Shown in pieces: positions 1,184 to 58,985 of a stretch of DNA of 64,000 nt. The stretch's first letter is position 1. The number at the start of each line of letters is the position of its first letter. A program made the position numbers and the translations under genes. The notes beneath the pieces are model-generated. The model saw only the letters and a list, made by a program, of their open reading frames with translations. It ran no database searches and was not told the origin of the DNA. Source of the DNA: Eledone cirrhosa (Eukaryota); assembly GCA_964016885.1 (NCBI GenBank), contig OZ024740.1, positions 82,150,001-82,214,000 of the forward strand. The letters are read 5' to 3'.

Positions 1184-1435
1184 TGATTTCTTTATTAACC
1201 ACAAGGGTTTACATAAAGTAGACATTAAGGACAGTGCAGGACAATACAGGACGGTACAAATGGGCATTTCTGCGTGTAAAAACCAAAAACAGAGGATGTA
1301 ACAAAAAAATAACAATGAAAAATTCCCCAATAGGGGGGAGACTTCCGAGGGACATTTGTGGAGAAAGCCCATTAAAAGGCCACGGTAACCCTGACCACTA
1401 GAGCAAGTGCCCTCTCCCAGTTTTCCACCTTTAAT

Positions 1436-4400
1436 TTACAGACAGATACTCAGAGTAGGCCCATTCACTCGGGCCATACTTGCTTCTCTCACCCATCTTT
1501 CAAAAAAATGCTGGGAAGAGAGCACATCCCTCTCTACCCTGATTTTCCTTTTCAAATGAAATTTGAAAAAGTTAATCAGGGCATCACCGAAAAGGTAAGT
1601 GCTCGTCTTCAGCCCTTTCAAACGTGTCCACCATACTATCTCTTTCGCCATGGCTACCAGACAGATAAAAACTGCCTACCCTTCCCGGCTAAAGGAAGAA
1701 GGCGGGGCAATCCTCACGATGGACTCCGCTCATAGCTGGATCCCTCCTACACGTGACAGCAGGTGTTCGAAATAAACCCACAAGTCAGCAATTTTCGGAC
1801 ACTGGACGAGTGCGTGCAGGACGGCTTCGTCGCCCTGCGCGCATCTCGGACATGCCCGGCTGACGCCACCTCCATGCCTGTAGAGTTTATCCCGAACTGG
1901 CAAAGCTCCTCGGTAGCACTGCCAGGCCAGGGATTTCTGGAAGTTGTCCATAGGCCCCGGCCCGAAAGTTCTTCCGAAGAGATTGGCTAGTTGATTTTCG
2001 TCGACGCCTAGAGTTTCCCCAAGCATGTCGTCGCTCTTCCCCTCCACTAGTCATCTATAGAACGCCGAGGTCGAGTTTCCATCGATCACATTGCCCGATT
2101 GGTCGAGGGCTGTGAGCGCCTGAAAACATTCAAGTCTCCAAGCACTCCCTCTCGGTCTTCGCTTGACCCAGGACTGCAGCTCCGTCAAGGAGACGAGCTG
2201 GAGAAAGACGTGTCTAGAAAACGACGACCACACCTGATCACCGTCGAGGAAGAGGTGGAGATGTCGTAGCCTGAGCGCGTGTCTGTGCATCATCAGCCAC
2301 GGCATGCCCAGTCCTCCACGTAGCGGGTGTTGACAGCAGATGGACCGCCTGACCATCGGAGCGCGTCCCTTCCACAAAAAGCGAAAGAGCAAACGCTCCA
2401 GCGCAGTCAGGAGGGGCTTAGGACAAGGTACGACGATCAGGCGGTAGTAGATGGCGGACGCGATGTAGGCGTTAGCCACCACCGTACGACCTTTCAGGGA
2501 TAGCTTCCTCTCCACCCATTTCTGCGTGAGAGAAGCAATCCTGCTTGTTACCTCGTCCCTGTTTTTGTCCGTCTGGAGGTCCAGACCGAGCCAAAACCCT
2601 AGCAATTTAACCGTTCCGTCCGTCCAGCGCCCGATGACGCTCTTGAACGGCATGGAACTGCCTCTACAGGCGTGGAGCTTCAGGCCCACTGACTTTTCCT
2701 GGTTGATCATTGCTCCTGTCACCGCTTCGTATTCTCTTAGCGTAGTGTCGATCGCCTAGATGTGTTTGGCGTTCGACACCACTACGGGGACATCGTCCGC
2801 ATCTGCTGACACGGATCTTCCGCATCCTGGTTCGCGAGGGACCACATCAACGTCTCCAGTTTGTGCAGTAATGGCTCGAGAGTCAATACGTACAAGAGGG
2901 ACGAGAGGGGACATCCTAGCGCCACCGAGCGCATGATGTTGAACGGTTCCGAAAGGTGACCGTTCACTCTCACCACAGAGCAGATGTCGCTGTGCATGGC
3001 AGCGATCCCGCCTCCCAAGACAGGCCCAAAGCCAGCCGACCTCAGGACTGCCGCTAGGTAACGATGGTCGACCCTATCGAAAGCTTTCGACTGATTTAAA
3101 TTGATCAAAACCCCTCCCCGTGCCAGGTTCCCTAGCTACACTCTCTACGATGTCTCGCATAAGGTGGAGGTTTTCGTGGATGGATCTGTTGGGAATGGCG
3201 CATATCTGCGTCTCTCCCACCAGACCACCAACGACAAGCGCCAACCTCTTTCATAGCACATTGGCCAAAATCTTGAACTTTGTGTTTAGCAGAGTTATGG
3301 GCCTGAAATTATCTATGTTATCCCCCTTGTTCGGATCCTTTCTCAGCAGCGCCACCGCTCACCGGCTCACAGAGCTGGGAATTCTCCCGTTCTGTTGCCA
3401 GTTGCACTAGACGCCCACTAAGAGGCCTCCGAACAAGCCTGTCATCTGTACGTAAAGTGCATAGGACAGATCATCCAAACCAGGCGATTTACCACTTGTG
3501 CAGCCAGTCATTGCCTCCCGTACTTCAGCGGCTGTTATCGGCTTTTCGCAACACTCCGCCTCAGTGGCCGAGAGCCGAGGGAGTCCGTCGAGGTAGACAC
3601 TAAAGTCCATCCCTCGATCCGGCCCGCCGCTGCACCCGAACAGCTAAGCGAAGTGTTGCTGAAAAGCTTCACACATTTGCCTTGGATTGCCTTGGATTGA
3701 GTAGCATGCGCCCGTCGTGGTCCACCAAAGACCGGATCGTGGCTTTGTTGCCACAACGAGATTCTGCCACTCGGGCCCATTGAACGGCTTTTGGGACCTC
3801 GTGTCTGAGAGCTACGCATCCTAGCTCTGACAACTCAGCCTTCGTACTTTGCATTGAAGAAATGTTGAAGTGCCAATTTCGCCGCAAGTACGTCAGTCGC
3901 GATGCCCTTGCTAAGCGCCTCGTCTAATGTTCTAACTAGTTCTCCCTGTGCTCTATTTTTCTCTATAGCTAAAGCCTTACTAAATCTAATGAACTCTATT
4001 CTAATCGCTCTTTTCAGAGCAAATCACCACTTGTTGTTGACGATGGCCCGGTCGACGCTCGCTTAACTAGTTCGCTAATCCGGTCTCTGTAGGCATTGTG
4101 CGCTGGTAAGGACGCGTTTAGCTTCCAGTAGCCGGGTCCTCGTCTATGAAGCCTATATAACACAAGCACACAGATCACGATTTGTGGTCCGTGTAGCTGA
4201 CTATCTTCAATTGTGGACAGCCTATACTAGACCTATCTATTTCCCTACAAAATACTCTATCTAGATATGATCTGGATGACCCGATGCGGTTTGTCCAAAT
4301 CCATATTGGCACATACGGGAAATCCAATCGGTACCTGTCAGACAGTTCAAAAAGTCTGAGCATGTTGGCGAGGCTCTTGCACCCTCCTCCCCTATCCGCT

Positions 4401-4860
4401 AATCCCACACAGTCCCAGCGTGCATCTAAGATCTCGTTCCAGTCGCCCACTAACACTAAAGAGCGGGACGTTCCTAGAAAGGTCTCCAGACGCTGGAAGA
4501 AATCAGGCCGCCCTGCTCCTGTCGGGGCATAAATGGCCACTAGCCTGAAAGCTTGCCCTTCTCCGCTGGTCACGTCTAGCACCACCAATTTACGTTCTGG
4601 GTCCAGGAAGATGGCCCGTATGGCGAGATCCGAACCTCCCCGAAAATAACAGCAACTCCAACCCCGATCCAGGACGGCTGGGAGATGCGTACGCGCGTAC
4701 ACATCGTAGCCGCCGAGGATAGTTGCGAAGGCCCGTGGTTCGGAGATTCGGGTCTCGCTGATGGCCATTGCATCTATGTTTAGTGACCTGAGGTCGTTGA
4801 GCAGGTGGCCCTGCTTCCATGACGACCCCAAGCCACGCGCATTATTCTGAGTGAGGTTAT
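1436..4860 (-). pseudogene. Tx1-like ORF2 (AP endonuclease, reverse transcriptase, zinc finger), frameshifted
   Basis: ORF pieces 4175-4894, 3407-3610, 2782-3108, 2051-2722, 1730-2047 and 1436-1651 are in the expected domain order. Confidence 0.88.
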
Positions 4861-4894
4861 GTTGAAATGGAGTAGAAAAGATGGGAAATACCAC

Positions 4895-7007
4895 TTACCT
4901 TACTTCTCGTAGAGAAAGGATGGTTTCTCCATGCTTCTCACAGCTTGCGACCTGCTCCGGAAGGATGTCCTTATAAATCCTCCTAGAGAGTGCTTGTGGG
5001 AAGCCTCCGATGTCTTTGGGGAATTTTTGTTTTAGTGTCGTGTACGTTTTCTGTGTGATGCGAGTGATTAGTATGTGTGGTGTTGGTGTGAACTTTTGGT
5101 GTGTTCTGTAGTATTTTTCTGTGATGCTGGTGTTGTGTTGGATGTGGTGTAATAGTTGGTTGTTGTTCAAATTTAATGCTGTGTAGTGTGTATCGTTTTG
5201 GTTGTTTTATTTTGTCTGTGTTTGTTGTGGGTTTGTTTCTGTTTCGCTTTTTTGTGACTTTTGTGGTGTTGGTGATGGTGTTTGTGTTTGTGGTGATGGG
5301 GCTGGAGTGGTGGTGTGGGTGGCGATATAGCTGTCTTAACTTTTTTGTTAGTTTGTTTGTTTCGCCCTGCATTTTGTTTTTGGAGGGCGAAGGAAGAGGA
5401 TTTTTTTCTTTTTTTGTTTCTTTTTTTCTTTTTTCCAGTTACTGTTTCCCACTCCTCCTCGTCGTCACAATCTGTCTCCAGTTGCGATAGGTCGGGGAGT
5501 GGAAAATCCTCCACAGGCGTTGGTTTAAGTTGTCGCGTGGTGGATGGTGGAGGCGTTGGTGCTAATTCTGGCGCTGTGGATGGTGGTGGAGTTGGTTTTG
5601 CTACTGTTGCTGCTACAGTTGTTGGGGTTGTTGCTACTACAGTTGCTTCTGTTGGTGGTGCTACAGTTGTTGCTGCCATTTCTGCTGCTGGTTTTGATGG
5701 TTGAGTCACTGGGGTGGGTAGGAGAGGTGGCCTCAACATTTTAGCCTGAGGTCCGAAAGACTTTAGGTGGGTTCCTTTGCCACAAACGACACACCTAGGC
5801 ATTCTAGCCTTAATGATTACGGTAAGGTGGCTGCCTTCATTGAGGTCTATCCCCAGTGGAATTTCCTGTATGTATTTTCGGTTCGCTTGGATCAGGAGCT
5901 CCATCGCACATCCGGACCAGTTCCCCGGCTTTACTTTTATCACCTCAATTACTTTAGCCTCGGCCTCGATGTCGGCGAGGACGGCAGCCATTAGCCAGAG
6001 GTTTCAATGTCCGGCGGAACCTGCGTCACCCTGATCCTTACCAGCCTCTGACCACAATAGTTTGGGACGATGTGAACTCGTCACTTTTTAATGGGGCCAT
6101 GGAGTGCCCTCTCGCTTCCCGAGGGGTTCCATAGAACATGCCCACGGTTCCATATTTTTGTCCACGTCTCATATGGGTTTTTTGAGCCCACATATGTCCC
6201 AAAGCTTTTTGTATCTGGGACTCGGATGCCCGTTCCACTCAGCGCGTTTTAATATCTATCGTCCGATATGACACGGTGCATAGGTGCCGATGCTCCATGG
6301 TATTAGATGGGGGTAGGGGAGGGGGAGGCTGACCCTGTAACCGTATTTTTTTACCATTCGCTTGGCTTCATTCAATTCTTAACTGGCTTACCTCAACCGT
6401 TTCATTTTTGTTTGCCGCTTTAGCAAATGACACATTTGGTTTTGCGCTGGTGTTGATGTTGTTGTTATTCTTATTGTTGCTGTTGTTGTTATTGTTATCT
6501 TTGTTATTATTATTTTAGTGTCAGTTGTGGTGGTGGTGGTGTCTTCGGCGGGGAAGAGTTGATTTTCGGAGAATCCATTTCGATATCACGAGAAAATAGT
6601 TTATTTTTTTATTCAGTTGTCGCTTTGGTGGTGGTGGTGGTATCAGTGTTGTTGGTTGTTCTTTTTGACATTGTGGTGGTGGGGATGGCGGCTTTAATAC
6701 CTGTAGACATTGGTAATGTTGGAAAATCCATGTCTGTATGTGACAAATCTAAATAATTGCCATTGCTATTACTTATATTTTCAGTGTTGGCATTTTTTTC
6801 TGTTGTCTGTATTTTTGTTGTCGCTGTTATTGTTGTATTTGGTGTGGTAATTTTTGTAAAAATTATTGTTCTCAGTGTTGTTGTCTTTGTTCACGTTCTT
6901 TTGGTGGTGCTTGCTGTGTGAATTTCTGTAGCCCTCCTCTCAACTTTTACGCCGTTGTCACACGACAACAGACACATTGCTGGGGGGCGTGGCTCAGCCA
7001 TATTCAT
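4895..7007 (-). pseudogene. Tx1-like ORF1 (Thr/Asn-rich N-terminus, zinc-knuckle-like motif, Pro/Thr and Lys-rich tail), disrupted
   Basis: ORFs 6038-6238, 5173-5991 (RCVVCGKGTHLKSF), 4895-5170; homologous to 17085-17600 and 45800-47017. Confidence 0.75.
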
Positions 7008-7206
7008 TTTTAATTTTTAAAAGTAAAATGTTCAAATATTAATAAAATATTTAGGCCAAAAGGCCCAAATATTATACTTTCCTCTTTATAGGACAAAGTC
7101 CAAGGGCTTATATCCCTTACACAACAAGAACATTTAAACAAAAAATAATTATAACCGGTAAATAAAGCGACTTACTGGCAGCGAGCAAAATGACGCCCGA
7201 ATAGAC

Positions 7207-17831: not shown

Positions 17832-18012
17832 CATTGTGGATTGGCAGTATCGGTAGAGGGTCGGACGCCATGCTTTCCATCATAGTTACGTCCCTTTACG
17901 GTCTGCGTTCAAATCCCGCCGAGGTTAACTTTGCCTTTCATCCTTACGGGGTTGATAAAATAAAGTACTGGGTAATTGATGGCCTTGTGCCAAAAGTAGA
18001 AACAATTATATA
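17832..18012 (+). mobile_element. tRNA-derived SINE, same family as 7207-7372
   Basis: A-box tggcagtatcgg, B-box gttcaaatccc, core and gtagaaacaatta end. Confidence 0.88.
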
Positions 18013-20566: not shown

Positions 20567-20764
20567 TATTGGCAGTATCAGTAAGGGGTACGACACCATG
20601 CTTTACAGCATAGAATTACGGCCCTTCATGATCTGAGTTCAAATGCCGCCGAGGTCAACTTTGCCTTTCATCCTTACGTGGTCGATAGAATAAAGTACCA
20701 GTCACGCACTGGTGTCGATTTAATTGACTTTCCCCCCTCCCCCAAAATTGCTGGCCTTGTGCCT
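20567..20764 (+). mobile_element. tRNA-derived SINE (longer variant of the same family)
   Basis: tggcagtatcag..gagttcaaatgccgccgaggtcaactttgcctttcatcc..ggccttgtgcc. Confidence 0.88.
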
Positions 20765-36732: not shown

Positions 36733-36778
<46 letters not shown>

Positions 36779-36781
<3 letters not shown>

Positions 36782-36876
36782 TTGTTTCTACTTTAGGCAC
36801 AAGGCCAGCAATTACCCAGTACACTATTGGTACTTTATTTTATCGACCCCGTAAGGATGAAAGGCAAAGTTAACCT
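36779..36876 (-). mobile_element. 5'-truncated SINE (Meta-like family)
   Basis: Matches 7219-7312. Confidence 0.85.
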
Positions 36877-41311: not shown

Positions 41312-44164
41312 TACTATAGAAATTTTAACAAACTATAAAGTAGGTGAACATTTTAAACAAACTAAACTTAGAAAATTGTAAAAAAAAGTACAGTATAAAA
41401 TCAACATGCGACATAGACATGCTGATAGAAATAATCAAGCAAAAAGTGTCGGACAAAGCTGCTCGTATAAGGCGCTTTGAAAAATGATCTAGATTCTATA
41501 AGGACAATAATATGTTCAAAACCAAAGAAACTTCTACAGAAAAATTGGTAAGTCAACAATAACTGCTAAATCAATACCACCCAAGGAGGAAGTGCAAGAA
41601 TTCTGGGAAAAGATCTGGGCCGAAGAAAAAGTTCATAACATACATGCCCCAGGGATAGACGGACAGATGAAAGATACAGCTCACCTTGAGGAACAAATAT
41701 GGGAAAATATAACAGTTGAACAGTGGCGCTTGGCTCTAAGAAAAACCAGCAAATGGAAATCCCCAGGAAAAGACAAAATACAAAACTTTTGGATAAATGC
41801 CTTCACAGAGTCTCATGAGCTGTTAGCCCAACTTTACAATGAAATAGTTAAGGAGCCAGAAAAGATACCATCATGGCTAGTTAACGGCATTACATTCCTG
41901 CTTCCGAAGAATGATGAGACAAACAATCCCAAAAATTACAGACCGATAACTTGCTTGACCACAATGTATAACATTTTAACATCAGTCCATACTGAATACA
42001 CATATGACCACCTGATAACAAATGACCTATTTCCCATTGAGCAGAAAGGGTGTCAATGAGGATCATATGGCTGTAAGGATCAGCTTCTGGTTAACAATAT
42101 GATACTGGAAGATTGTCATAATAGACACAACAATCTATCGATTGTTTGGATAGATTATAAAAAAGCATTCGATAGTTTGCCACACAGTTGGATTGAAAAA
42201 TGTTTAGAGATTTTCAAAATATCCCCCGTTGTCAGGAGGTTTTTGTCATTCAGTATGAAGACATGGAAAACGACACTCCTTTTGAATAGTGAAACAAAAT
42301 CACTGGAAGCTGGAGAAGTTAATATTAATTGTGGAATGTTTCAGGGTGACTCTTTATCAGCGCTTTTATTGTGCATCGCACTTATACCATTAAGTAAAAT
42401 GCTCAATGAAACAAAACATGGATATAAAGTTTATGACAAAACCATTAATCACCTGTTCTACATGGATGACCTGAAACTATTTGCAAAAAATGATGAACAA
42501 TTGCAAGGGCTATTATCCACTGTGGAGCAGTTCAGTGATGACATTAAAATGGAGTTTGGACTAGATAAATGCGCCAAAGCAACGTTCACCAGAGGAAAGC
42601 TACTGAAGAGTTTAGACATTAATCTTGATCGGGGGAATGTGATAAGAGAACTTGATCAAGAAAAAACTTACAAATATCTAGGTGTTTGTGAAGGAGACGG
42701 AATCAAGCACTCGACAATGAGGGAAAGGATAAGGAAGGAATGTTACCGCAGAGTAAGAGCAATCTTAAGAACGGAATTGAATGCAAGGAATAGGATCGAT
42801 GCCATAAACACGCTTGCCATACCAGTAGTAAACTACAGTCACAATGTCATCAACTGGTCAAGCACAGAGATCCGTAGGCTCGATACAAAAATTCGAAAAT
42901 TCTTAACCATGCAGAGAATGCATGACCCTAAGGCAGATATAGATAGAATATATCTCCCTAGGAAAGAAGGAGGACGTGGGTTAGTCCAGTTAGACATTGC
43001 GTTGAAAACTGCAACAATTGGATTATCTACATATCTAAGGGAATCACATGATTGGATGATCAAACTCGTTTTGAAACACGAAAGCATCAAAAGATCATAT
43101 TCCATTACAAAAGATGCACAATGATGCAGTAATGGACTACAAATTTCAGAAGTCCCATTTACTGCTGAAATGGAAAACACAGAAAAAGCAAAGCAGGTAA
43201 AAGTAACTGCAAAGAAAGAACTGCTACAGAAACTGGCTAAGAAATGGCAAGAAAAGCCTCTGTATGGAAAATACCCAGAGCGAGCTAACAATCCTGATGT
43301 TGACAAAACTTTAACCCATCAGTGGTTGGCATCCTCTGGACTGAAATCGGAGACTGAAGGACTGATTATATCAGCACAAGATCAGTGTCTGCCAACAACA
43401 AATTACCAAGCCAACATAATAAAAAATGGATGCAGCCCATTATGCCGTGTATGCAAAAAACAACCAGAGACCATTGACCATATAATTTCAATGTGCAGAC
43501 CTATAGCTCCAACCGAATACCTAAACAGGCATGACAGAGCTGCACAATACATACATTGGATAATGTGTAAGCATTTTGACCTGCCCCATCAAAAGAATTG
43601 GTGGGATCATCAACCACCTCCCATACTTGAAAAAGATCACATCTCAATCTTGTAGAACTTTAGCATCCAAACAGACCGAAAAATAGATGCAAATAGACCT
43701 GATATAACATTGAAGGACTTTAAAAAGAGGGTATGCCTGCTAATTGATATGTCCGTTCCAATAGACAAGAATGTATCTATAAAAACATTTGAAAAATTGA
43801 GCAAGTATAAGGACCTGGAGATAGAAATTGGAAACATGTGGAAATTGAGAACTAAAACAATACCAGTGGTTGTAGGCGCTCTGGGAATGATACCTAAGGG
43901 GTCTATTGATTACTTATCGCAAATCCCAGGAAACCCGCGTATAGGAGAAATACAAAAGATAGTACTAATGGGAACTGCCCATATACTAAGGAAGATTCTG
44001 TCAATATAAGTACATCACAAGTCTAAACACTAAAGATGCATGTGTCAGTATGTATGTTCTTTCTTGAACATGGCGGACCTTGTTGTCTCTTGAGGTCACT
44101 GGTTGTGACTTGGTGATAACTCGTATGAACATAAAGCCATATAAATGCAACTGTAATAATAATA
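41312..44164 (+). mobile_element. R4/Dong-clade retrotransposon family B (distinct from A), 5'-truncated
   Basis: WKSPGKD, NYRPITCL, DYKKAFDSLPH, FQGDSLS, HLFYMDDLKL, CRVC..HIISMC, RHD, RPD..LIDMSVP; (AAT)n 41264-41310 upstream and TAA tail. Confidence 0.92.
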
Positions 44165-47100
44165 GCGCCACCCTCTTTGCTAGCACCTTGGGCAAAATCT
44201 TGAACTCTGTGTTTATCAGAGTTATGGGCCTAAAATTATCTATGTTATCCCCCTTGTTCGGATCCTTTCTCAGCAGCACCACCGCTCCTCGGCTCACAGA
44301 GCTAGGAATTCTCCCGTTCTATTGCCAGTTGCAGTAGACGTCCGCCAAGACGCCTCCGAACCAGTCTGGCATTTGTACGTAAAGTTCATAGGGTAGGCCA
44401 TCCAAACCAGGCGATTTACCCCTTGTGCAGCCAGTCATTGCCTGCCGTACTTCAGCGGCTGTTATCGGCTTTTCGCAACAGCGTCAGTGGCCGAAAGCCG
44501 CGGCAGTCCGTCGAGGTAGACACTAAAGTCCATCCCTCGATCCGTCCCGCGCTGCCCCCGAACAGTTGAGCGTAGTGTCGCTGAAAAGCTTCACACATTT
44601 GCCCGGGATCGAGTAGCATGCGCCCATCGTGGTCCACCAAAGACCGGATCGTGGATTTGTTGCCACGACACGCCTCCGCCACTCGGACCCATTGAACGGA
44701 TTTCGTCCCCTCGTGTCTGAGAGCACCCACCCTTGCTCTGACAACGCAGCCTTCGTGCTTTGCATTTATAAATTGGTGAAGGGGCAATTTCGCTGAAAGT
44801 ACGTCGGTCGCGATGGCTTTGCTAAGCGCCTCGTCTAATGTTCTAACTAATTCTCCCTCTGCTCTATTTTTCTCTATTGCTAAAGCCTTACTAAATCTAA
44901 TGGACTCTATTCTAATTTCTCTTTTCAGAGCAAACAACCACTTGTTGTTGACGATGGCCCCCGTCAACGCCCGCTTAACTAGTTCGCTAGTCCGGTCTAT
45001 GTAGGCCTTGCGCGCTGGTAAGGACGCGTTTAGCTTCCAGTAGCCGGTCCTCGTCTATGAAGCCTATCTAATTCAAGGACACAGATCACGAATTTGTGGT
45101 CCGTGTAGCTGACTATCTTGAATTCTGGACAGCCTATGCTAGACCTATCTATTTCCCTACAAAATACTCTATATCGATATGATCTGGATGACCCTATGCG
45201 ATTTGTCCAAGTCCACATCGGCACATTCGGGAAATCCAATCGGTATCTGTCAGGCAGTTCAAAACGCCTGAGCAGGTTGGGGAGGCTCTTGCAAGCTCCT
45301 CCCCTATCCGCTGATCCCATACAGTCCCAGCGTGTATCTAAGATCCCGTTCCAGTCGCCCACTAACACTAAAGAGCGGAACGTTCCAAGAAAGGTCTCCA
45401 GACGCCGGAAGAAATCAGGCCGTCCTGCTCCTGTCGGGGCATAGACGGCCACTCGCCTGAAAGCTTGCCCGTCTCCGCTGGTCAGGTCCAGCACCACCAA
45501 CTTACGTTCTGGGTCCAGGAAGATGGCCCGTATGGCTAGATCCAATTCTCTCCGAAAAAGCACAGCAATCCCTTTCCCCCGATCCCGGAAGGGTGGGAGA
45601 TGCGTACACATCATATTCTCCGAAGGTCGGTGCGAAGGCCCGTGCTTCGGAGATTCTGGTCTCGGTGATGGCCACATCATCTATGTTTAGTGACCTGAGG
45701 TCGTTGAGCAGGTGGCCCTGCTTCCATGACGACCCCAAGCCACGCGCATTTATGCTGCCTATTCTGAGTGAGGTCATGTTGAAATGGAGTAGAAAAGATG
45801 GGAAAGACCACTTACCGTACTTTTTTCGTAGAGGAAGGATGGTTTCGGCATCCCTTTTCACTTGATCGTCCGGTGAAGGGACCGTTGAATCGTGCCTTCG
45901 GCTGGTCGTCGGCTCTTCTATGAGTATGTCCGAATATACTCTCCGGTTGAGAGTCTCTCCTCGGTCTCCGAAATCACCAACTGCGTTGGGGAATTTCGTG
46001 TTAATGTTTGTATATTGTTTCTGTGCTATTCTTACCACTCTTATGTTCGTTGGTGTGTTGATTGGTGCTGGTATTATGTAGTCGTGCTGTGAAATGTCTG
46101 TGTGTTCAATTATGTAAGTCATTAGTTTCTTGTGTGTATATATTGCCGTGCATTTGTTTTTCTGGGGGTGGGGTGTGGTTCTGCTATTTTCTTGTCGTTG
46201 TTGCTGGGTGTGTGTGTTCTGTTGTTGTGTTTGCGATGTTGGTGCTTGTGGTGGAGGTGTTGAAGGTGTTGTTGTTGTTGGCGGTGGGGTTGTCGCCGGT
46301 GGTGATGGTGGTGCTAGTGTGGGTGGTGATGGTGTTGGTGGTGTTGCTGCTGTGAGTCTCTTTGTAGTAGCCTTTACCCTTTTTTCCTTTCTTTCCTCCC
46401 TTTTCGAAGGCGACGATGCGCTGCTTCTGCGTTTGTGCTTTCTTGCGACCTTTTGCCATCCTTCTCCCACCTAACACTCCATGTCTGATTCTGTGAGGTC
46501 GGGGAGGGGTACCAGCTCCACTCTTTCACTAGTTGTTGTTGATGATGTTTGCAGTGGTGTCTCTGTTGCAGCTGCAGTTGGTATTACTGTTGTTGTTGTT
46601 GTTAATACTTCCACAGCTGCTGTCGTTCTTGTTTTCCGTGGCGTGGGTATGGATGCCACGGGCCTATCGTTCCTGGTTTCCGCTTGTCCTGTTGCTGGTA
46701 GCCGTGGAGCCGGTTTCGGAAGGAGGGGTTTTCTCCTATCTCAGGGTCTTCTCGTTGCAGAAGGCCCTGAGTTGAGTCTTCGATCCACAGCGAAAGGATT
46801 TCGGGCGTTTGCCCTCAGCACTTATGGTCAGTTGAGTGCCGTTATCGAAGTCTATCACATCCGGGATAGCTTCGATGCACTCCTGGTTGGTTTGGATTAA
46901 CATCTCAATGGAGGTGCCGACCCAATCTTCTCGTACTTTTTTCTGTATTTGCAGTAGTGATGTTTTGTCCTCGATTACGACGAGGACAGACGCGGCCAGC
47001 CAAGAGAGGGCCATCAAAGGGGACGTGGATCAGTTTGACCCTCACAATTTTTTGTCCGCAGTAGGAGAGCACCAAACACCGTTTCCTCGTTCCTTAGGTT

Positions 47101-47550
47101 CACCTTTTCCCGCACACCTTTTTCGGCGTTGTCGTCGTCGTCGTGGAGAAATGTTCCATGTTTTGCACGTGATTTTGGAAACAATTTTTCTTTACTGGCG
47201 TCGTTTGTGAAAGAGAAGGGAGGGAGAGATACACATTTAGAGAAGGGAGGGAGAGAGACAATCTTCTCTCTGCTGTAGTGACGATTGAGGAAGAAGAAGA
47301 CGGAATGAGTGTGAAAATTCTTTTTTGTAGCCATGTTTTTTTTGGGGTTTAAAATAAATATTGGGCACAGAACCCCAATAAGCGGTTATTTAACCACGAA
47401 CGTCCAAATAACGGGCAGAAAGACCACTCTCACGAGGAGGAGGGTGTTTTTCTCTACAGTTTGGTTAAAGTTTTAAACAATTTACAATTGTTATAGCGGT
47501 CAAAATTTACAATACCTTACAGACTCGAGCCTCCGTCAACCATGGCATTT
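44165..47550 (-). mobile_element. Tx1-like LINE, 5' half only (5' UTR, ORF1, APE, start of RT)
   Basis: MTSLRIGSINARGL, VAVYAPT, LVGDWN, YTDHK, DNFRPITLINTEFKIL; ORF2 closely similar to copy 1; breaks at the Dong B tail. Confidence 0.9.
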
Positions 47551-47554
47551 TTAG

Positions 47555-49060
47555 GATATCAACCAAATCTTGTCCTAGCCCGTCAGCATTGATCTCCTCA
47601 GTGGCCGTATCTCTGTTCCAGGTATTAATTATCTCAGTATTCAGATCATTGTCTGCTTCGGGTGGTTCCTCCGTTCTCTCGACCTCTTTACCTTCATTTC
47701 CCACTGGCTCGTTTGCCTGGCATACTCCACCCTCCATCTCCAAGCTAATCTCTCTGCTCAGTTCCTGCAGTTACAGCTCGCTTATCCACCCATTAGCTCT
47801 TATTACGCGAGCCTGCCCGGCCAATTTTTGTTCATCTAATTTAAATAGACCAATCTCGTTCCAGATGTTATGCATCCGTTTCCTATAGCCCTTGGAGTTA
47901 CTTTTCAGGTAACATTGCATAACAGTTCTATTCAATTCTTTCGTCCAGTTGGTTCTGGTCCCTTTCCTTCTTCTTCTTCCTCCGACACCAGCAGTATTTG
48001 GTTGACAGCCAGGTCCCTGCTGTTGAGCCAGGGAGCACCTGTTGGGTGAGAGTCTGTCACATGACGTTCAAGTCTCCATTTCACCGTTATTCGAACTGTT
48101 TAGGTTCGACATTTAAACACACTTATCGAGGATTGGCGAATGTATAGTTACATAACCACCGGTGGATTCACCGCCTCCGGTGGTTGCGTCACTCCACGTG
48201 GCTCTTGTGTGGCATTATCACGCTGTAGACGAACACAAATAAACAAACAAACAAACAGGCAGAAAAAACCCCAAAAAAGAATAAGCATTACAAGTTTCAT
48301 TGTAATGTAGTGTTCGAATGTCTGACTTAGTTTTTCCCTTCCTTTCTCTGTCCGTTCGTTTCTTTCTCTCTTCATTCTTATTTTCTTTACGTTTTTTGTT
48401 TTTTGTTGTTGTTGTTGTTGCTTTGATTTTGATTTTTGTTTTTTCTTTTGAGTCTATTTATATATTTTGATGCCTTCCTCTTTTTTAGTAGGAATTCTAC
48501 AATGTGGTGGCGGTGCTGTGCTAGCAGCAACTAGCAGGAGGTAGTGGGAGAGAATAGCGGCGGTAGCGATACTGAGGCAGTGGTGGTGGTGGTGATGTGG
48601 TCGTATTAATGTAGTGATGGTGTCCTCTTTTAGTAGGAATTCTACAATGTGGTAGTGGTGCTGTGCTAGCAGCAACTAGCAGGAGGTAGTGGGAGATAAT
48701 AGCGGCGGTAGCGATACTGAGGCAGTGGTGGTGGTTATGTGGTCGTATTACTGTAGTGATGGTGTTGTAGTTGGGGTATAAATTTGAGTCGATTTGATCA
48801 GAGTTTTCATCGTGGTAGTGGTGGTGGTATTGGTGGTGAAATAATAATCTTTAGTCGTTTAGTAGTGGTGGTGATGTGGTCGTATTACTGTAGTGATGGT
48901 GTTGTAGTTGGGGTATAAATTTGAGTCGATTTGACCAGAGTTTTCATCGTGGTAGTGGTGGTGGTATTGGTGGTGAAATAATAATCTGTAGTCGTTTAGT
49001 CATTTTACCATTTTCGACTCCAACATTCCTGATGAAAAATTAAATATTAATCTTGTTTAT
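47555..49060 (-). mobile_element. 5' part of Dong family A including the long leader (with internal ~130-bp duplications)
   Basis: 47555-48500 is the inverse of 50005-50962; 48190-49060 is the inverse of 54050-54610. Confidence 0.85.
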
Positions 49061-49670
49061 CAATAGTGTCTAGTGATATCGCCATCCTCCCCTTTCGTAA
49101 GTTAACAAAAGGTAGTGGGGGGATAGTGGTGGTAGCAATGAAGGAGTGGTGGCGGCGGTGATGGGATAGTGGTAGTAATGATGGATGGGCGGTGACTCTA
49201 GTGATGGCGTTGTCGTTACTGATGTCCGTTCGGTGAATCTATGGGGTTAGTCACGTACATGTGTTGACATAAATTCCCTTAATGTTGGAATTAAACATTT
49301 TGTTCAAACTTGGGACAATAATAATAGTAATTATTATTATCATTATTATGTTGAGATTGGCTGTGGTGGTGGTGAAATTGCCGTTATCTGGCTGTTGTGT
49401 TTAGTGTACACAGAGGGGTGATATGGTAGGTGGTGTATCTAGTTTCTGGTATTGGTGAAATTGCTGTTGTTTGGCTGTTCTATATAGTGTAATCAGTGGA
49501 GGGGGGGGTTCTTCTTCTTCCATTTATAGCCATTTTCTTTTTTGAATATACAATGTATAATACAAAGTTGAATATTTGAGCCTTATAACATTATATTTTG
49601 GGTCCGAATATTTACGTAACATTTGTACTAAGAATTGTTATTTCACAAATGATTTAAATATGTTAAAAAT
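49060..49670 (-). mobile_element. Tx1-like 5' UTR / ORF1-start fragment
   Basis: ggctcaaatatt..aaaatggct..gaacccccccctcc resembles the Tx1 5' regions at ~7000 and ~47340. Confidence 0.5.
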
Positions 49671-49675
49671 TCAAA

Positions 49676-50003: not shown

Positions 50004-53000
50004 TGTAGAATTCTCACTAAAAGAGGAAGGCCTCAAAATATATAAATAGACTGAAATTATGACCCGGTCAAAATAAAAAAAAACAAAAATTAAAATCAAA
50101 GCAGCACAGCAACAACGAAAAACGCAAAGGAAATAAAAATGAAGAGAAAAACAAACGGACGGAGAGAGAAGGGAAGGGAAAAACTATGTCAGACATTGAA
50201 ACACTACATTACAATGAAACCTATGCTTATTCATTTTTTGGGTTTTTTCTGCCTGTTTGTTTGTTTGTTTATTTGGGTTCGTCTAAGCGGGATACTGCCA
50301 CACAAAAGTCACGTGGAGTAACGAAACCACGGGAGACAAGTAATTCACCGGTGGTTATGTAACCATACATTCGCCAATCCCCGATAAGAGTGTTTAAATC
50401 TCGAACCTAAACAGTTCGAATAACGGTGAAATGGAGACTAGAATGTCATATGACAGACTCTAACCAAACAGGTGCTCCCTGGCTCAGCAGCAGGACCTGG
50501 CTGTCAACCAAATACTTCTGGTGTCGGAGGAAGAAGAAGAAGAAAAGGGACCAGAACCAACTGGATGAAAGAATTGAATAGAACTGTTATGCAATGTTAC
50601 CTGAAGAGTAACACCAAGGAGAAAGGCTATAGGAAAAGGATGCATAACATCTGGAACGAGATTGGTCCATTTAATTAGATGAACAAAAAACTGGCCGGGC
50701 ACGCTCGGGTAATAAGAACTAATGGGTGGATAAGCGGGCTGGAACTGGAGGAACTGAGCAGAGAGATTAGCTTGGAGATGGAGGGTGGAGTATGCCAGGC
50801 AAACGAGCCAGTGGGAAATGAAGGTGACGAGGTCGAGAGAACGGAGGGACCACCCGAAGCAGACAATGATCTGAATGCTGAGATAAATAATACTTGGAAC
50901 AGAGATACGGCCACTAAGGAGATGAATGCTGACGGGCTAGTACAAGATTTGGTAGATATCCTAAACGTAGTGGTAGATGAATTGAACAATGATAGTGGGA
51001 GACCTATGAACCTAAGATTTGTAAACAGGAAAAAGTTAAAAGAAACAACAGCTAAGGTAAACAAAGTCATCCCATACCTTGAGGCCAGGAGCCTTCACCA
51101 GTGCAACAATATCCTCAAAGCAACAGCAAATACGGTGAGGAAACTAGTTGGTATAAAAGCGAGAGGAAACAACAGACAAGAAAGAGCAGAACCTTGGTGG
51201 AAGAAACGACTGAGTGGTCAAATCAGGGAAATGAGAAATGACATTGGAAAGCTTGAGTCCCTACTGAATGGGACACTAAAAAACATAGACACTAAAAATA
51301 GACTGGAAATACAGTACAAAACTAGGAGGAAAAAGCTAAATATTATCATAGAGGAACTGAAGCAACGCATTGTAGCAAAGAGTGCAAAAATCAGGCGGTA
51401 CGAGAACAGAGTCAGTCAGTATAGACAGAACCGCATGTTCTACAACAATCAGAAGATGCTGTTTGGACAGCTTGAACGGAAAGAAAGAGGCAACGACTTG
51501 ATCCCTGAGGCGGAACAAACTAAAACATTCTGAAGAGGAATATGGGTACAGGATGTTAAACATAATGACCAGGCAGTGTGGATTGAGACAGTACAGAAGG
51601 AGATCAGTGAACAGGCACACCAACAAACTGATTTGAGTATCACAGTTGAAACTCTTAAGGGGCAGGCAAAAAAACTAACCAACTGGAAATCACCTGGACC
51701 AGATGGTGTGCAGGGGTATTGGATTAAAAACATAACATCCCTCCACTCGAAACTGACAACCATGTTCAATGACTGCTTGATGTCAGGTGAGGTACCAGAG
51801 TGGTTGACAAAAGGTACCACAGTTCTGATAATGAAAGACCGAATCAAGGGTAATGATGTTACCAACTATAGACCTGTCACATGTCTGTCCGTAATGTGGA
51901 AACTGTTGACAAGCATTATATCTGAGGAAATCTACCATCACCTCCACACAAACAACTTGTTACCGGACGAACAGAAAGGATGCGAAAGATGTCACGTGGT
52001 ACAAAGGACCAGTTACTTATTGATAAGATGGTAATGAGGAATTGCAAGAGGAGACACACTGGTCTTGCCATGGGATGGATAGACTACAAAAAGGCATTTG
52101 ACATGGTGCCTCATTCTTGGATCACCAAAAGCCTGGAGATCTTCAAGGTGGCAGATAACATCAGACAGTTGTTGGGCAAGAGTATGAGGCCCTGGGAAAC
52201 AGAGTTGATCTCAACTGGAGAATCCTTGGGAAGCGTGAAGAACAAGAGAGGTAACTTCCAGGGAGATAGCCTATCCCCTCTGTTGTTTGTCCTTGCCCTG
52301 ATGCCCCTGACCAGTGTACTGCGAAAAGTGAAAGCAGGATGCAAGTTGGGAAAGGGAGAGATTACCATCAATCACCTCCTCTTCATGGACTATCTTAAGC
52401 TCTTCGGGAAGAGTGAGAAGGAGTTGGATGTGCTTGCTGACACTGTCCGTATTTTCAGCAGTGATATATGTATGCAGTTTGGTTTTAGTAAGTGTGGAGT
52501 CATTGTGATGAGGAGGGGTAGGTTGAGCAGAAGTAACGGAATCCAGTTACCAACAGGTGAGATGATAAAGGAAATTGACTCTGAGGAAGGATACAAGTAT
52601 TTGGGCGTTCTGGAGGCTGATGGCATAAAGAACAAAAAAATGAAGGAATTGTTAAGAACTGAATACATTCGGAGAGTAAGGAGCGTATTGAAGTCACATC
52701 TGAACAGCAGAAATGCCATAAGCGCAGTAAATTCCCGAGCTGTGTCTATTATTAGGTACAGTGCGGGAATTCTGAGATGGAATGTTGCTGAACAAAAAGA
52801 AATGGATAGGAAGACTAGGAAGCTATTGACTATCTACATGTTCCACAAGAGGAGTGATGTCGATAGACTCTACCTAAGGAGATCTGAAGGTGGAAGAGGT
52901 CTTATCAGCATAGAGGACTGTGTTCCGATGGAGAAAATCAACCTACACAAATACGTGGCTGATAGTAAGGAGCCAATGCTCAGAACTGTACTGAAGGAGG

Positions 53001-53886
53001 GGGCAATAGGCCAGTAGATGTCCAAGGAGGAAATGACATCAAGGAGAAAGAGCAGCCTTCAGGAAAAATCCCTTCATAGTACCTTCTTTGAGAAAACTGA
53101 ATTTAGAGATCCACAGACATGGAACTGGTTCAGAAGAGGAGACCTTAAAAAGAAGGAATGTTAATAATGGCTGCGCATGAGCAGGCCCTCAAAACGAAGT
53201 GGTTGGAACACCATATTTACAAGGAGGAGGCTAGCCCACTGTGCAGGATCTGCGGAGAGAGAGAGGAGACTGTGGCTCACATTGTATCCGAGTGTAAACA
53301 CCTAGCCCAGACCCACTATAAGGACTGGAGACACGATGTGATGGGCAGGGTGATCCACTGGCACCTGTGCAAAGTAAACAATTTACCACATTCTGAGAAA
53401 TGGTATGAGCATAAGCCAGAGACGGTGATGGAGAACGATCAGGTGAAGGTGCTGTGGGATTTTAGGATACAAACGGACAAGAAACTGGAACACAATAGAC
53501 CTGACCTGGTGGTTGTGGACAAAGAAAAAAGATCGTGTCTGATTGTGGATGTGGCCGGCCCATTCGACACGAGAGTGCGAGAGAAGGAGAGGGAGAAATT
53601 AACCGATACCAGGACTTAAAGTGGGAGGTAAAAAGGATTTGCAACTGCCATGAAGACAAAGTGATCCCGATTGTCATAGGCGCACTGGGGACTATCTCCA
53701 AAAGATTCCAGGGATGGTTAAAGAAAATCGGCCCCTTCACGCTTTTTGGAACGCTTCAAAAGGCATGCTTGCTGGGAACAGCAAGAACCCTCCGATACGT
53801 CCTGAATATCTGAGGCTGCAGGTAGTGGCTTGATATTCATTCCAACGGACTATCCAGTTAACTAACATCAATGACTGAGATTCAAG

Positions 53887-53917
<31 letters not shown>
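50004..53917 (+). mobile_element. Near full-length Dong family A element
   Basis: Leader, single disrupted ORF, 3' UTR, (TAA)n 53888-53917. Confidence 0.93.
50398..53813 (+). pseudogene. Dong A single ORF (N-terminal domain, RT, CCHC knuckle, RLE) with stops and frameshifts
   Basis: ORF pieces 50472-50678, 50679-51533, 51576-52034, 51980-53017, 53158-53619, 53535-53813; start inferred from MLNINSSNNGE at 58018. Confidence 0.9.
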
Positions 53918-56900
53918 CGCTCCCGTAAGTATTTGATTTTTACTTATTTAAAACAACTGTGATAGAATAATTCTTATTACAAATGACGTATAAGATTACA
54001 TTTTAACGCTCAGCAAGCCATAACGCATCACTTTAAGGCATAAGGCCCCAATATTTAATATTTAATTTTGGATCAGAAATGTTATAGTCGAAAAAGGGGA
54101 AAATGGCAATATGGCTAAATAGGTAAATGGCTAAGTGGACAGACAGACAAATAATTTCACCACCAACACTACCACCGCCACCATCACCACTACCACGCCA
54201 AAAACTGAGTCAAGCTACCTCAACTTCTATTTCTACTTCAACTACAACTACAGTACTACGATAACATCACCACCACCACTGCCTCATTATCACTACCGCC
54301 GCTATTCTCTCCCACTACCTCCTGCTAATACATGCATCGTAGTGTCCCCACTAAAAGAGGAAGGCATCAAAATATATAAATAGACTGATTTGATGACACG
54401 GTAAAAAAATCGAAAAACCAAAAATCAAAATCAAAATCTAAACAGCACGGACAAAAGAAAAACAGACAAACGGACAGAGAAGAAAAAAAAAACTAAGTCA
54501 GACATTCAAACATTACATTACAATGAAACTTATGCTTATTCTTTTTGTTTTTTTTCACCTATTTGTGTGTTTATTTATGTTCGTCTACAGCGTGATAGTG
54601 CCACACTAAAATCACCGGGGGTGATGAATTCACCGGTGGTTATGTAACCATACATTCACCAATCCTCGATAAGAGTGTTTAAATGTCGAACCTAAACAGT
54701 TCTAATAACGGTGAAGTGGAGACTGGAATATCATGTGGCAGACTATCACCCAACAGGTGCTCCCTGGTTCAGCAGCAAGGACCTGGCTGTCAACCAAATA
54801 CTGCTGGTGTCGGAGGAAGAAGATGAAGGAAAGGGATCAGAACCAACTGGACGAAAGAATTGAATAGAACTGTTATGCAATGTTACCTGAAGAGTAACCC
54901 CAAGGAGAAAGGCTATAGGAAACGGATGCATAACATCTGGAACGAGGTTGGTCAATTTAAATTGGCCGGACAGGCTCGGGAAATAAGATCTAATGGGTGG
55001 ATAAGCGAGCTGGAACTGGAGGAACTGAGCAGAGAGATTAAGTTGGAAATGGAGGGTGGAGTATGCCAGGCAAACGAGCCAGTGGGAAATGATGGTGAAG
55101 AGGTTCAGAGAACAGAGGAGACATCCGAAGCAGACAATGATCTGAATGCTGAATAAATAATACCTGGAACAAAGATTCGGCCATTGAGGAGATCAATGCT
55201 AACGGGCTAGGACAAGATTTGGTTGATATCCTAAACTTAGTGGTAGTTGAATTGAACAATGATAGTGGGAAACCTATGAACCTAAGATTTGTAGACAGCA
55301 AAAAGTTAAATGAAACAACAGCTATGGTAAACAAAGTCATCCCATACCTTGAGGCGAGGAGCCTTCACCAGTGCAACAATATCCTCAAAGCAACAGCAAA
55401 TGTGGTGAGAAAATTACTAGGCATAAAAGCGAGAGGAAACGACAAACAAGAAAAATCAGAACATTGGTGGAAGAAACGACTGAATGGTCAAATTAGGGAA
55501 ATGAGAAATGACGTTGGAAAGCTTCAGTCCCTACTGAATGGGTCACTAAAAAACATAGACACTAAAAATAGATAGGAAATAAAGTACAAAACTAGGAGGA
55601 AAAAGCTAAATATTATCATAGAGGAACTGAAGAAACGCATTGTAGCAAAGAGTGCAAAAATTAGGCGATACGAGAGCAGAGTCAGTCAGTATAGACAGAA
55701 CCGCATGTTTGACAACAACCAGAAGATGCTGTTTGGACAACTTGAAGGGAGAGAAAGAGGCAACAACTTGATCCCTAAGACATTCTGGAGTGGAATATGG
55801 GAGCAGGATGTTAAACACAATGACCAGGCAGTGTGAATTGAGACAGTACAAAAGGATATTAGTGAACAGGCACACCAACAAACTGATTTGAGTATCACAG
55901 TTGAAACTCTTAAGGGGCAGGCAAAAAAACTAACCAACTGGAAATCACCAGGCCCAGATGGTGTGCAGGAGTATTGGATTAAAAATATAACATCCCTCCA
56001 CCCGAAACTGACAACCATGTTCAATGACAGCTTGATGTCAGGAGAAGTACCAGAGTGGTTGACAAAAGGTACCACAATTATGGTAATGAAAGTTCGAATC
56101 AAGGGTGATGATGTTACCAACTATAGACCTATCACATGTCTGTCCGTAATGTGGAAACTGTTTAAAAGCATTATGTCTGAGGAAATCTACCATCACCTCC
56201 ACACCAACAACTTGTTACCGGACGAATAGAAAGGATGCCCAAAGAAGTCACGTGGTACAAAGGACCAGTTACTTATTGATAAGATGTTAATGAAGAATTG
56301 CAAGAGGAGACCCACTGGTCTTGCCATGGGATGGATAGACTACAAAAAGGCATTTGACATGGTGCCTCATTCTTGGATCACCAAAAGCCTATAGATCTGC
56401 AAGGTGGCTGATAACATCAGACAATATTTGGGCAAAAGTATGAAGTCCTGGAAAACAGAGTTAACATCAGCTGAATAATCCTTGGGAAGCGTGAAGATCA
56501 AGAGAGGTATCTTCCAGGGAGATAATCTGTCCCCTCTGTTGTTTGTCCTTGCCCTGATGCCCCTGACCATTATACTGCGACAAGTGAGGGCAGGATACAA
56601 GTTGGGAAAGGGAGAGCTTACCATCAATCACCTCCTTTTCATGGACGATCTTAAGCTCTTCGGGAAGAGTGAGAATGAGTTGGATGTGCTTGTTGACACT
56701 GTCCGTATTTTCAGCAATGATATATGTATGTAATTTGGTATTAGTAAGTGGGGAGTCCTTGTGATGAAGAGGGTAATTCTAGCAGAAGCAACGGAATCCA
56801 GGTAACAACAGGTGAGATTATAAAGGAAATTGACACTGAAGAAGGATACAAGTATCTGGGTGTTCTGGAGGCTGATTACATCAAGAACAATAAAATGAAG

Positions 56901-57947
56901 GAATTGATAAGATCTGAATACATTCGGAGAAGAAGGAGCGTATTAAAGTCACATCTGAACAGTAGGAATGCCATAAGTGCATTAAATTCCCGAGCTGTGT
57001 TTATTATTAGGTACAGTGCGGGAAATCTGAGATGGTATGTTGCTGAACAAAAAGAAATGGATAGGAAAACTGGGAAGCAATTGATTATCTACAACATGTT
57101 CCACAAGAGGAGTGATGTCTATAGACTCTACTTAAGGAGATCTGAAGGTGGAAGAGGTCTTATCAGCATAGAGGACTGTGTTCAGATGGAGAAAAACAAC
57201 CTACACAAATACGTGACTGATAGTAAGTAGCCAATGCTCAGAATTGTACTGAAGAAGAGGACAATAAACCAGGGGATGTCCAAGGAGGAAATAACAACAA
57301 GGAGAAAGAGCAGCTACCATGAAAAATTCCTTCATAGTACCTTCTTTGAGAAAACTGAATTTAGAGATCCACAGACATGGAACTGGTTGAAAAGAGGAGA
57401 CCTTAAAAAGGCTACAGAAGGAATGATAATGGCTGCGCAAGAGCAGGACCTCAAAACGAAGTGGTTGAAACACCATATTTACAAGGAGGAGGCTAGCCCA
57501 CTGTGCAGGATCTGTGGAGAGAGAGATAAGACTGTGGCTCACATTGTATCCGCGTATAAACACCTAGCCCAGACTCACTATAAGGGCTGGAGACATGATG
57601 GCTGGAGACATGAGTGCAAGAGAAAGAGAGGGAGAAAATTAACCGATACCAGGAATTAAAGTGGGAGGTTAAAAGGATTTGGGACTGCCATAAAGTCAAA
57701 GTGGTCCCAATTGTCATAAGCGCAATAGGTACTATCTCAAAAGGTTTCCAGGGATGGTTAAACAAAATTGGCACCGCCACGGTTTTCTAACGCTTCAAAA
57801 TGCATGCTTGCTGGGAACAGCAAGAAGCCCCCGACACGTCCTGAATATCTGAGGCTGCAGGTAGTGGCTTGATATTCATTTCAACAAACTTTCCAGTTAA
57901 CTAACATCAATGACTGAGGCTCAAAGAACAATAATAATAATAATAAT
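53918..57947 (+). mobile_element. Dong A element with the longest leader, head-to-tail with the previous copy
   Basis: HLLFMDDLKL RT motif; deletion in the RLE near 57600; TAA tail. Confidence 0.92.
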
Positions 57948-58985
57948 CACCGGAGGTGATGGGATCACCGGTTGTTATGTAACCATACATTCACCAATCC
58001 TCGATAAGAGTGTTTAAATGTTGAACATAAACAGTTCGAATAACGGTGAAGTTGAGACTGGAATATCATGTGACAGACTGTCACCCTGCAGGTGCTCCCT
58101 GGCTCAGCAGCAGGGACCTGGCTGTCAACCAAATACTGCTGGTGTCGGAGGAAGAAGAAGGAAAGGGACCAGAACCAACTGGTCAAAAGAATTGAATAGA
58201 ACTGTTATGCAATGTTACCTGAAGTGTAACTCCAAGGAGAAAGGCTATAGGAAACGGATGCATAACATCTGGAACGAGATTGGTATATTTAAATTAGCTG
58301 GTCAAAAATTGGCCGGGCGGGCTCGGGTAATAAGAATTAATTGGTGGATAAGCGAGCTGGAAATAGTGGAACTGAGCAGAGAGATCATGTTGGAAATAGA
58401 GGGTGGAGTATGCCAGGCAAACAAGCCAGTGGGAAATGAAGGTGAAGAGGTTCTCCGAAGCAGACAATGATCTGAATGCTGAACTAAATAATACCTGGAA
58501 CAAAGATAGGGCCATTGAGGAGATCAATGCTGACGGGCTAGGACAAGATTTGGTTGATATCCTAAACTTAGTAGTAGATGAAATGAACAATGATAGTGGG
58601 AAACCTATGAACCTCATATTTGTAGACATGAAAAGGTTAAAAGAAACAACAGCTAAGGCAAACAAAATCATCCCATACCTTGTGGCTAGGAGCCTTCACC
58701 AGTGCAACAATATCCTCAAAGCAACAGCAAATGCGCTGAGAAAATTACTTGGCATAAAAGCGAGAGGAAACAACAAACAAGATCAGAACCTTGGTGGAAG
58801 AAACGACTGAATGGCCAAATCAGGAAATGAAAAATGACATTGGAAAGCTTGAGTTCCTACTGAATGGGACACTAAAACCCATAGACACTAAAAATAGACT
58901 GGAAATAAAGTACAAAACTAGGAGGAAAAGACTAAATATTGTCATAGAGGAATGAAGCAACAAATTGTCGCAAAGAGTGCAAACG
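57948..58985 (+). mobile_element. Dong A 5' portion, 3'-truncated
   Basis: Starts caccggagg directly after TAA; ORFs 58018-58470 and 58403-58810. Confidence 0.9.

Follow-up and report, generated by a model that had tools for sequence, protein, structure and literature searches.

The window, a 64,000-nt stretch of the Eledone cirrhosa genome (assembly GCA_964016885.1, contig OZ024740.1, positions 82,150,001 to 82,214,000 of the forward strand), holds stacks of LINEs with (AAT)n tracts between them. The copy under study is a Dong A element whose body, a decayed single ORF encoding a reverse transcriptase (RT) and a restriction-like endonuclease (RLE), lies at 54683..57948 on the plus strand, ends in an AAT tract and is 90% identical to 50277-53338, a part of another plus-strand Dong A copy (50004..53887) that is 5′-truncated within its leader. 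In that upstream copy the RT spans 51926-53014 (RVT_1 domain, E 1e-14), followed by CCHC and RLE motifs at 53149-53619, and in the RLE region we read the motifs CRIC..H..SEC, RHD, RPD and D-V-A. A further Dong A copy on the minus strand (47550..49675) has a long leader that starts just past the donor, and its body breaks at 47550 beside a Tx1-type 5′ end; the sequence-only reading had this copy at 48190-49060, where it is indeed present, but its extent was underestimated, as it reaches 49675. The long leader consists of two modules, each ending in an ATG, and corresponds to a B-type front fused to a short A leader. We also observed a 137-nt tandem duplication and more internal repeats within it, at 48487-49000. 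A second family, Dong B, is represented by a 5′-truncated body at 41316..44153 on the plus strand, and its full-length copies elsewhere carry the same leader.

Dong A has a single ORF in which the RT is followed by a CCHC knuckle and then by the RLE, and it inserts into (TAA)n, both of which are found in R4/Dong elements. A Dong homolog (P0002) is a single ORF of 1,158 amino acids, and its top PDB matches are R2 proteins. The RT homologs among the 120 matches listed are unnamed or uncharacterized, and the Dong/R4 label is one that we presume from architecture and target.

The other LINEs are Tx1-type elements with an apurinic endonuclease (APE). One occupies 1187..7206 on the minus strand, with a 5′ UTR (Tx1a) that matches the Dong leader, and is itself a 5′ chimera; the 5′ part of another, whose UTR (Tx1b) is weakly like the leader, lies at 44164..47549 on the minus strand, and a further 5′ part begins at 16387 on the plus strand. 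These elements follow (ATT)n and have two ORFs, with APE (PF03372) and RT (PF00078) in ORF2, as at locus L082, where an ORF2 of 1,152 amino acids has ORF1 upstream. A protein of Argonauta hians aligns with one Tx1-type ORF2 of this genome, the query, over 40% of its length and at 70% identity. "Tx1" was the label of the sequence-only reading, and we take it over as an assumption, no named Tx1 reference being among the 120 matches listed.

Two smaller repeats were also seen. A short repeat of ~150-190 nt, often in tandem (7215-7362, 17836-18017, 20568-20712 and 36765-36876), inserts in AAT tracts and within Dong leaders (L038, L132) and is likely a SINE, and a fragment resembling a PIF1-like helicase (59973-60464, minus strand, E 7e-8) is possibly a Helitron remnant.

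Structure of the leader in the window copy

The window copy is inserted in an (AAT)10 tract (53888..53917) that forms the tail of the upstream Dong A copy. Based on an alignment of 29 copies and on the distances of 5′ ends, 53916..53924 are the last 9 nt of an "exon 1" of ~47 nt, directly followed by a GTAAGT donor (53925-53930, as read in the sequence). The copy is 5′-truncated and misses the first ~40 nt of its leader, because full-length copies begin 44-50 nt ahead of the donor. Positions 53918..54106 make up a Tx1-like module, so called for its similarity to Tx1a and Tx1c, composed of exon 1, the donor, a T-rich stretch, CCCAATATTT (54047-54056), an A-run and ATGG. The CCCAATATTT motif stands upstream of AAAATGG, with its ATG at 54103, and 54082..54105 is the equivalent of the short-intron acceptor, an AG before AAAATGG, that is used in Dong B copies. 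The next part, 54107..54405, is non-coding, ACC/ACT-rich, of low complexity and variable length, and partly common with Dong B. The Thr-rich ORF start that had been proposed in the leader does not hold, as the frame is not open; the 54107..54405 stretch is likely a decayed ORF1 start. The remainder (54406..54682) is a 5′ UTR specific to Dong A, with a T-rich tract and a CTACAG that ends at 54590; the Dong ATG at 54683 is 92 nt further on.

Both the GTAAGT near the leader start and the CTACAG ~90 nt before the Dong ATG were therefore where the sequence-only reading had put them, and the Tx1 motifs that it named in the leader were recovered, with counterparts in Tx1-type 5′ ends near 7000-7060 and 47330-47365. 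Its claim that three Dong A copies have a leader in common agrees with matches within the window of 79% (54247-54898 against 48615-47897) and 81% (54349-54898 against 50015-50612). The leader is shared as claimed, but the discrete joint with Dong proposed at ~54610 was not seen; in consensus sequences judged by eye, likeness to the Dong B leader stops near 54405. Leader length varies widely among Dong A copies, with Dong A consensus leaders of 841, 1,181 and 1,525 nt, against 1,137 nt for Dong B, and each leader contains 11-19 upstream ATGs, the majority of them outside the short intron described below.

Genome-wide distribution of the leader

Found genome-wide, the leader forms the regular 5′ end of a Dong/R4-type LINE that is present in many copies. 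Exact matches to exon 1 followed by GTAAG number 874 + 883 = 1,757, while the control gave 0. Among 75 copies with intact motifs, 50 have their 5′ end 44-50 nt before the donor and 71 have an AAT or AAG tract no more than 110 nt upstream of it (63 behind AAT, 8 behind AAG, 4 behind neither). Judged by eye, the copies preceded by (AAG)n include L002, L071, L072, L073 and L075, and thus three of the four intronless copies considered below.

A 781-nt stretch of the leader compared with its own genome (3.0 Gb) gave 1,994 candidates, 40 of which were scored, and the long-leader subfamily of the minus-strand copy gave 2,448, again with 40 scored; the loci fetched were the best-scoring matches and not a random sample. 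The Dong A ORF continues from the leader in 29 of the 30 fetched loci, the window copy among them, with differing flanks, so the association of leader and Dong A goes beyond a one-off nesting, as had been claimed. Local duplication as the source of the shared leader is ruled out, as flanks differ across genomic loci. In an older Dong A subfamily the leader is present in 2 of 19 loci, the two that reach so far, and no leaderless Dong family, the ancestral state, was found in this subfamily, in which most of the 19 loci are truncated or interrupted.

Contigs of run X5 (organism B) match locus L056 at 436-511, 850-1045 and 1422-1682, that is, at exon 1 with the donor, in mid-leader and from the A-specific UTR into the ORF start, as separate pieces. 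The leader likely exists in a related species.

Exchange of the leader between Dong families

The RTs of Dong A and Dong B are 45% identical, and blastn finds no match between the two bodies. At L077 a leader that is 75% identical stands in front of a Dong B body, and this Dong B form is multi-copy. Consensus A and B leaders are 80-88% identical, the long A leader aligns with the B leader over ~700 nt at 82%, and the leaders of L113 (Dong B) and L125 (Dong A) are identical at 228 of 229 nt, the B form of L113 recurring in L137 and L142. When 20 copies of exon 1 were sampled from the first 100 listed, 15 led into Dong A and 4 into Dong B, and 1 had no assignable body.

We built a tree from 99 leader starts, of which 85 had an assigned body and 83 (61 A and 22 B) entered the tree. 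The A and B labels change five times on it, well-supported branches require three of these changes, and no tree among 200 bootstrap replicates is compatible with a single change. By this phylogenetic measure the leader is shown to have switched bodies at least three to five times, and recently, and it can be regarded as a mobile module traded across Dong A and Dong B. Both its presence on Dong B and this movement had escaped the sequence-only reading.

We also looked for ribozymes in these 5′ ends. No Rfam ribozyme was found at E<=1 in five loci, where an insensitive test gave AT-repeat noise alone, and a home-made descriptor scan, likewise insensitive and run without a positive control, gave 0 matches in three consensus UTRs. 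In the UTR specific to Dong B we observed a G+C-rich stretch with nested complementary segments and no Rfam match (minus strand of L077, ~120-210 nt upstream of the Dong B ATG), which suggests a pseudoknot and might serve in internal initiation or as a ribozyme.

Intronless copies and the use of the donor

Genomic copies that lack an intron were sought with a probe for exon 1 without the next GT, which gave 6 matches when the next base was not G and 12 when it was G followed by a base other than T; the reverse-complement pattern of the non-G probe returned the same 6. Two of these six keep the intron with an altered donor, and the other four (L072-L075) are without ~160-167 nt. The 12 matches with G then non-T were rejected as spliced copies, since 11 retain the intron with an altered donor and L132 enters the short repeat. 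A probe that tolerated every gap length of 0-30 nt gave 6 matches, namely L072-L075 and 2 that are non-Dong by their matched letters, against 20 for the reversed control, and no imprecise deletion of intron type was seen with it.

In all four intronless copies the break falls exactly at the GT donor. L074 and L075 rejoin at the base after the AG that precedes AAAATGG, with no microhomology, and L072 and L073 rejoin 5 nt upstream of that AG, after AA. The intron losses represent three independent events, because L073 and L074 are each closest to a different unspliced copy (98.1% and 96.7% identical) and L072 is a local duplicate of L073; on a tree built from 21 B leaders, these events do not form one clade that excludes unspliced copies. 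The chance of a donor offset of 0 three times within the probed gap range is estimated at ~2e-4 (31/496 combinations, cubed). Set against at least 1,775 copies with the motif, three events amount to a rate of ~0.2% or less, and all three are in B-type leaders; a spliced copy of the short-leader subfamily of the window was not found. We therefore see precise and independent GT-AG losses in copies with full-length 5′ ends at the target, as in SpIREs (spliced copies of human L1), with L074 and L075 exact at both ends and L073 exact at the donor only. Taken as genomic traces of RNA processing, these copies show that the GTAAGT donor is usable, if rarely. The intron that they back is ~165 nt long and ends before the Tx1-like ATG, not at 54590.

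The sequence-only reading had proposed a longer retained intron, 53925-54590, whose removal would clear upstream ATGs. In its strongest form this intron would be regularly spliced from the mRNA while unspliced RNA serves as the template for transposition, and spliced mRNA might template poorly and leave no DNA copies. The acceptor does look strong, with a T-rich tract of ~50 nt and CAG in 70 of the 75 main copies, and 11-19 upstream ATGs per leader would give its removal a purpose. However, the short intron does leave DNA copies, whereas no copy with exon 1 joined to 54591 was found on either strand of the genome, and none of the five copies in which the AG of CTACAG is changed is joined to the donor. 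Moreover, the acceptor reads CAA in 4 of 6 copies of the older subfamily, and the Dong B leader has the same donor yet shows no alignment over 54590. The long intron is thus unsupported, and we consider its regular splicing quite improbable. Contigs from five runs (X1, X2, X4, X5 and X6; kind unrecorded), compared with one short-leader and one mid-leader copy, are nowhere joined at the donor or at one of the two acceptors, and in X4 and X5 they run through the donor unspliced; as rare forms are lost from contigs, this weighs neither for nor against splicing.

Similarity of the leader to Tx1-type 5′ UTRs

We compared the leader with four Tx1-type 5′ UTRs (Tx1a to Tx1d), three of them consensus sequences of 3, 9 and 9 copies and one a single copy. 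In all four UTRs a donor-like GTAAG or GTTTG comes 30-44 nt after the 5′ end and an ATG follows at 165-218 nt; the Dong leaders have the donor at 47-50 nt and the ATG at 221-232 nt, and over 210-230 nt the two groups agree in length and in the order of motifs. Against dinucleotide shuffles, the short A leader has a local z of 9.9 with Tx1c and 7.5 with Tx1a (0 of 300 shuffles as high in each case), against shuffles within 10-nt windows z is 5.2 and 6.4, respectively, and none of 692 AT-rich genomic tiles reaches these scores. For two of the four UTRs, the alignment with the leader is therefore significant, above three null models. The UTRs of Tx1a and Tx1c give a z of 11 with each other, so the Dong module is roughly as close to each as they are mutually. 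The match to Tx1b is weak and that to Tx1d absent (local z 0-3.6; in local mode, 21-470 of the 692 tiles reach the same score). Likewise in local mode, the similarity of the Dong B leader to Tx1c is weak (z 2.5, a score reached by 13 of the 692 tiles). The likeness as a whole is distant and gapped, with modest identity.

Such modest identity, together with the poor match of two of the four Tx1 types and the presence of the leader in all Dong subfamilies sampled, could reflect convergence on a generic grammar of promoter and splice donor in AT-rich DNA, with a leader native to the Dong lineage. Yet leader scores with Tx1a exceed position-preserving shuffles and all 692 tiles, and those with Tx1c do so in all comparisons but one; the agreement in length and motif order also extends over 210-230 nt, and convergence without exchange would not account for leaders that are nearly identical on bodies whose RTs are 45% identical. 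We therefore find convergence hard to credit.

The claim of a cross-clade capture finds support for the first ~220 nt of the leader, which are colinear with Tx1a and Tx1c, but a close Tx1 donor was not found: none of 20 sampled exon-1 carriers was a Tx1 element bearing the Dong exon 1. The comparison supports a cross-clade origin of these ~220 nt at the level of sequence. Beyond the ATG, DNA similarity between Dong and Tx1 gives z values of 0.8-4.4 in low-complexity sequence, and an HMM profile from the four Tx1 types found no ORF1 remnant in Dong leaders (best E 0.68). The AG acceptor beside the ATG is not conserved in Tx1b, Tx1c or Tx1d, and one Tx1b probe found no spliced Tx1b copy, its single match being a one-base deletion.

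Likeness among the Tx1 UTRs does not track ORF1, as Tx1a and Tx1c have the closest UTRs and ORF1s only 30-33% identical. In the chimeric Tx1 element of the window (1187-7206), the first 412 nt belong to the L083 family (75%) and the remainder to the L078 family (87%), so Tx1-type elements would appear, from this one instance, to trade fronts too. Both points, like the missing close Tx1 donor and the resemblance of a short exon, GT donor and ATG to the start of a host gene, agree with a module that came from a host promoter, first exon and intron, or from another common source, entered the Tx1-type and the Dong elements separately and now circulates among all residents of AAT tracts without a direction from Tx1 to Dong. 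The ATG, however, is in use for ORF1 in Tx1, similar low-complexity sequence follows it in both groups, and no host source was identified among genome-wide matches swamped by Dong copies. We hold a host or common source to be unlikely.

Three further observations concern the Tx1-type elements. L078 and L085 have ORF2 sequences that are 94% alike and different UTRs and ORF1s. The last ~97 nt (1187-1283, minus strand, in the window; also L078, L083 and L085) are 98-99% alike, although the bodies are 73-76% alike, which suggests tail exchange or strong constraint. Dong and Tx1-type 5′ ends often stand head-to-head across one AAT/ATT tract (L003, L006, L007, L013, L014, L019, L020, L021, L024, L028 and L030), where the putative promoters would face apart.

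Discussion

We propose, as the probable reading of these genomic sequences, that the Dong leader is a Pol II promoter module of likely Tx1 origin that is traded between Dong families and whose promoter-proximal donor stays, for the most part, in the RNA that is copied. The leader is the sharply defined normal 5′ end of both Dong A and Dong B, abutting (AAT)n, and has changed bodies several times in the recent past; in this proposal, it would owe its first ~220 nt, statistically colinear with Tx1-type 5′ UTRs, to a Tx1-type element. The direction from Tx1 to Dong is suggested because the terminal ATG opens ORF1 in Tx1 and a dead frame in Dong. Capture may have taken place by an RT template switch or by insertion of Dong into an AAT/AAC-rich run inside a Tx1 ORF1, one of which would be needed because Dong and Tx1 groups are otherwise antiparallel in the tracts.

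The rare and precise GT-AG loss of the ~165-nt intron, seen in DNA, would imply spliceosomal processing of a Pol II transcript, and the intronless copies are likely dead ends similar to SpIREs. The donor could have been kept as a promoter or U1-binding element, and not for clearing upstream ATGs. Because most of the upstream ATGs lie outside the short intron, translation of the Dong ORF would have to begin internally or by re-initiation.

Known systems provide precedents for parts of this proposal. The Dong element of Bombyx mori, according to the available part of one account, self-cleaves from a co-transcript by a 5′ HDV-like ribozyme, and the RLE elements studied there (R2, R4 and Dong) are excised from co-transcripts by 5′ ribozymes (PMC3774820). 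The elements of Eledone resemble Bombyx Dong and Ascaris R4, of the R4 clade, in their single RT-RLE ORF, (TAA)n target and tandem stacking, but instead of the 5′ ribozyme described there, which our insensitive tests did not find, they have a leader of 840-1,525 nt with a splice donor and a Tx1-like front (PMC3774820). In mammalian L1, 5′ UTRs are described as repeatedly acquired and exchanged, with 11 replacements in the mouse and template switching as one proposed route (PMC3600994). The Dong leader is similar in its repeated acquisition and exchange, but the L1 exchanges described are within L1 or from unknown sources, whereas here they are between RLE families and the source is likely of the APE clade (PMC3600994). 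Recruitment of 5′ UTRs is well known within L1; exact-word searches of the open literature, with partial coverage, found no report of a 5′ UTR transfer from APE to RLE elements.

Human L1 SpIREs, as far as they are described in the part of the source available, offer the closest parallel for the donor: a conserved 5′ UTR donor, rare genomic copies with precise splicing that are regarded as dead ends, and persistence of the donor owing to its part in the promoter. Mutation of that donor cut promoter output to ~18% (PMC5860796). SpIREs make up ~2% of full-length L1, against ~0.2% or less here, and unlike in L1, the element is of the RLE type and its intron stops directly ahead of the Tx1-like ATG (PMC5860796). 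The Tx1 families Kibi and Koshi are microsatellite-specific APE LINEs, as are the Tx1-type elements here, but with (TC)n, (TTC)n, (TTCC)n or (TTTC)n as targets instead of the (ATT)n followed here, and the available part of their account makes no mention of 5′ sharing with RLE elements (PMC4494074).

A broader scenario, which we put forward tentatively and rate somewhat below an even chance, is that this ~220-nt cassette of promoter, exon and donor is a plug-in that circulates among unrelated LINEs of AAT microsatellites. It would have passed from the APE clade (Tx1) to the RLE clade (Dong), replaced read-through that depends on a ribozyme with autonomous Pol II transcription, and still be traded between Dong families, and it may underlie the expansion of Dong-R4 in octopods.

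The intronless copies provide evidence of splicing at the level of DNA, and the near-identical leaders on bodies with 45% RT identity provide a dated series of 5′ exchanges. If a Dong element with a borrowed promoter is confirmed, the change from host-dependent to autonomous transcription would be achievable by capture across LINE clades. In Octopus vulgaris, Dong-R4 and L1-Tx1 families are both reported as recently active (PMC13282606), and a borrowed promoter would offer an explanation, open to test, of why Dong-R4 has recently been so active in octopus (PMC13282606).
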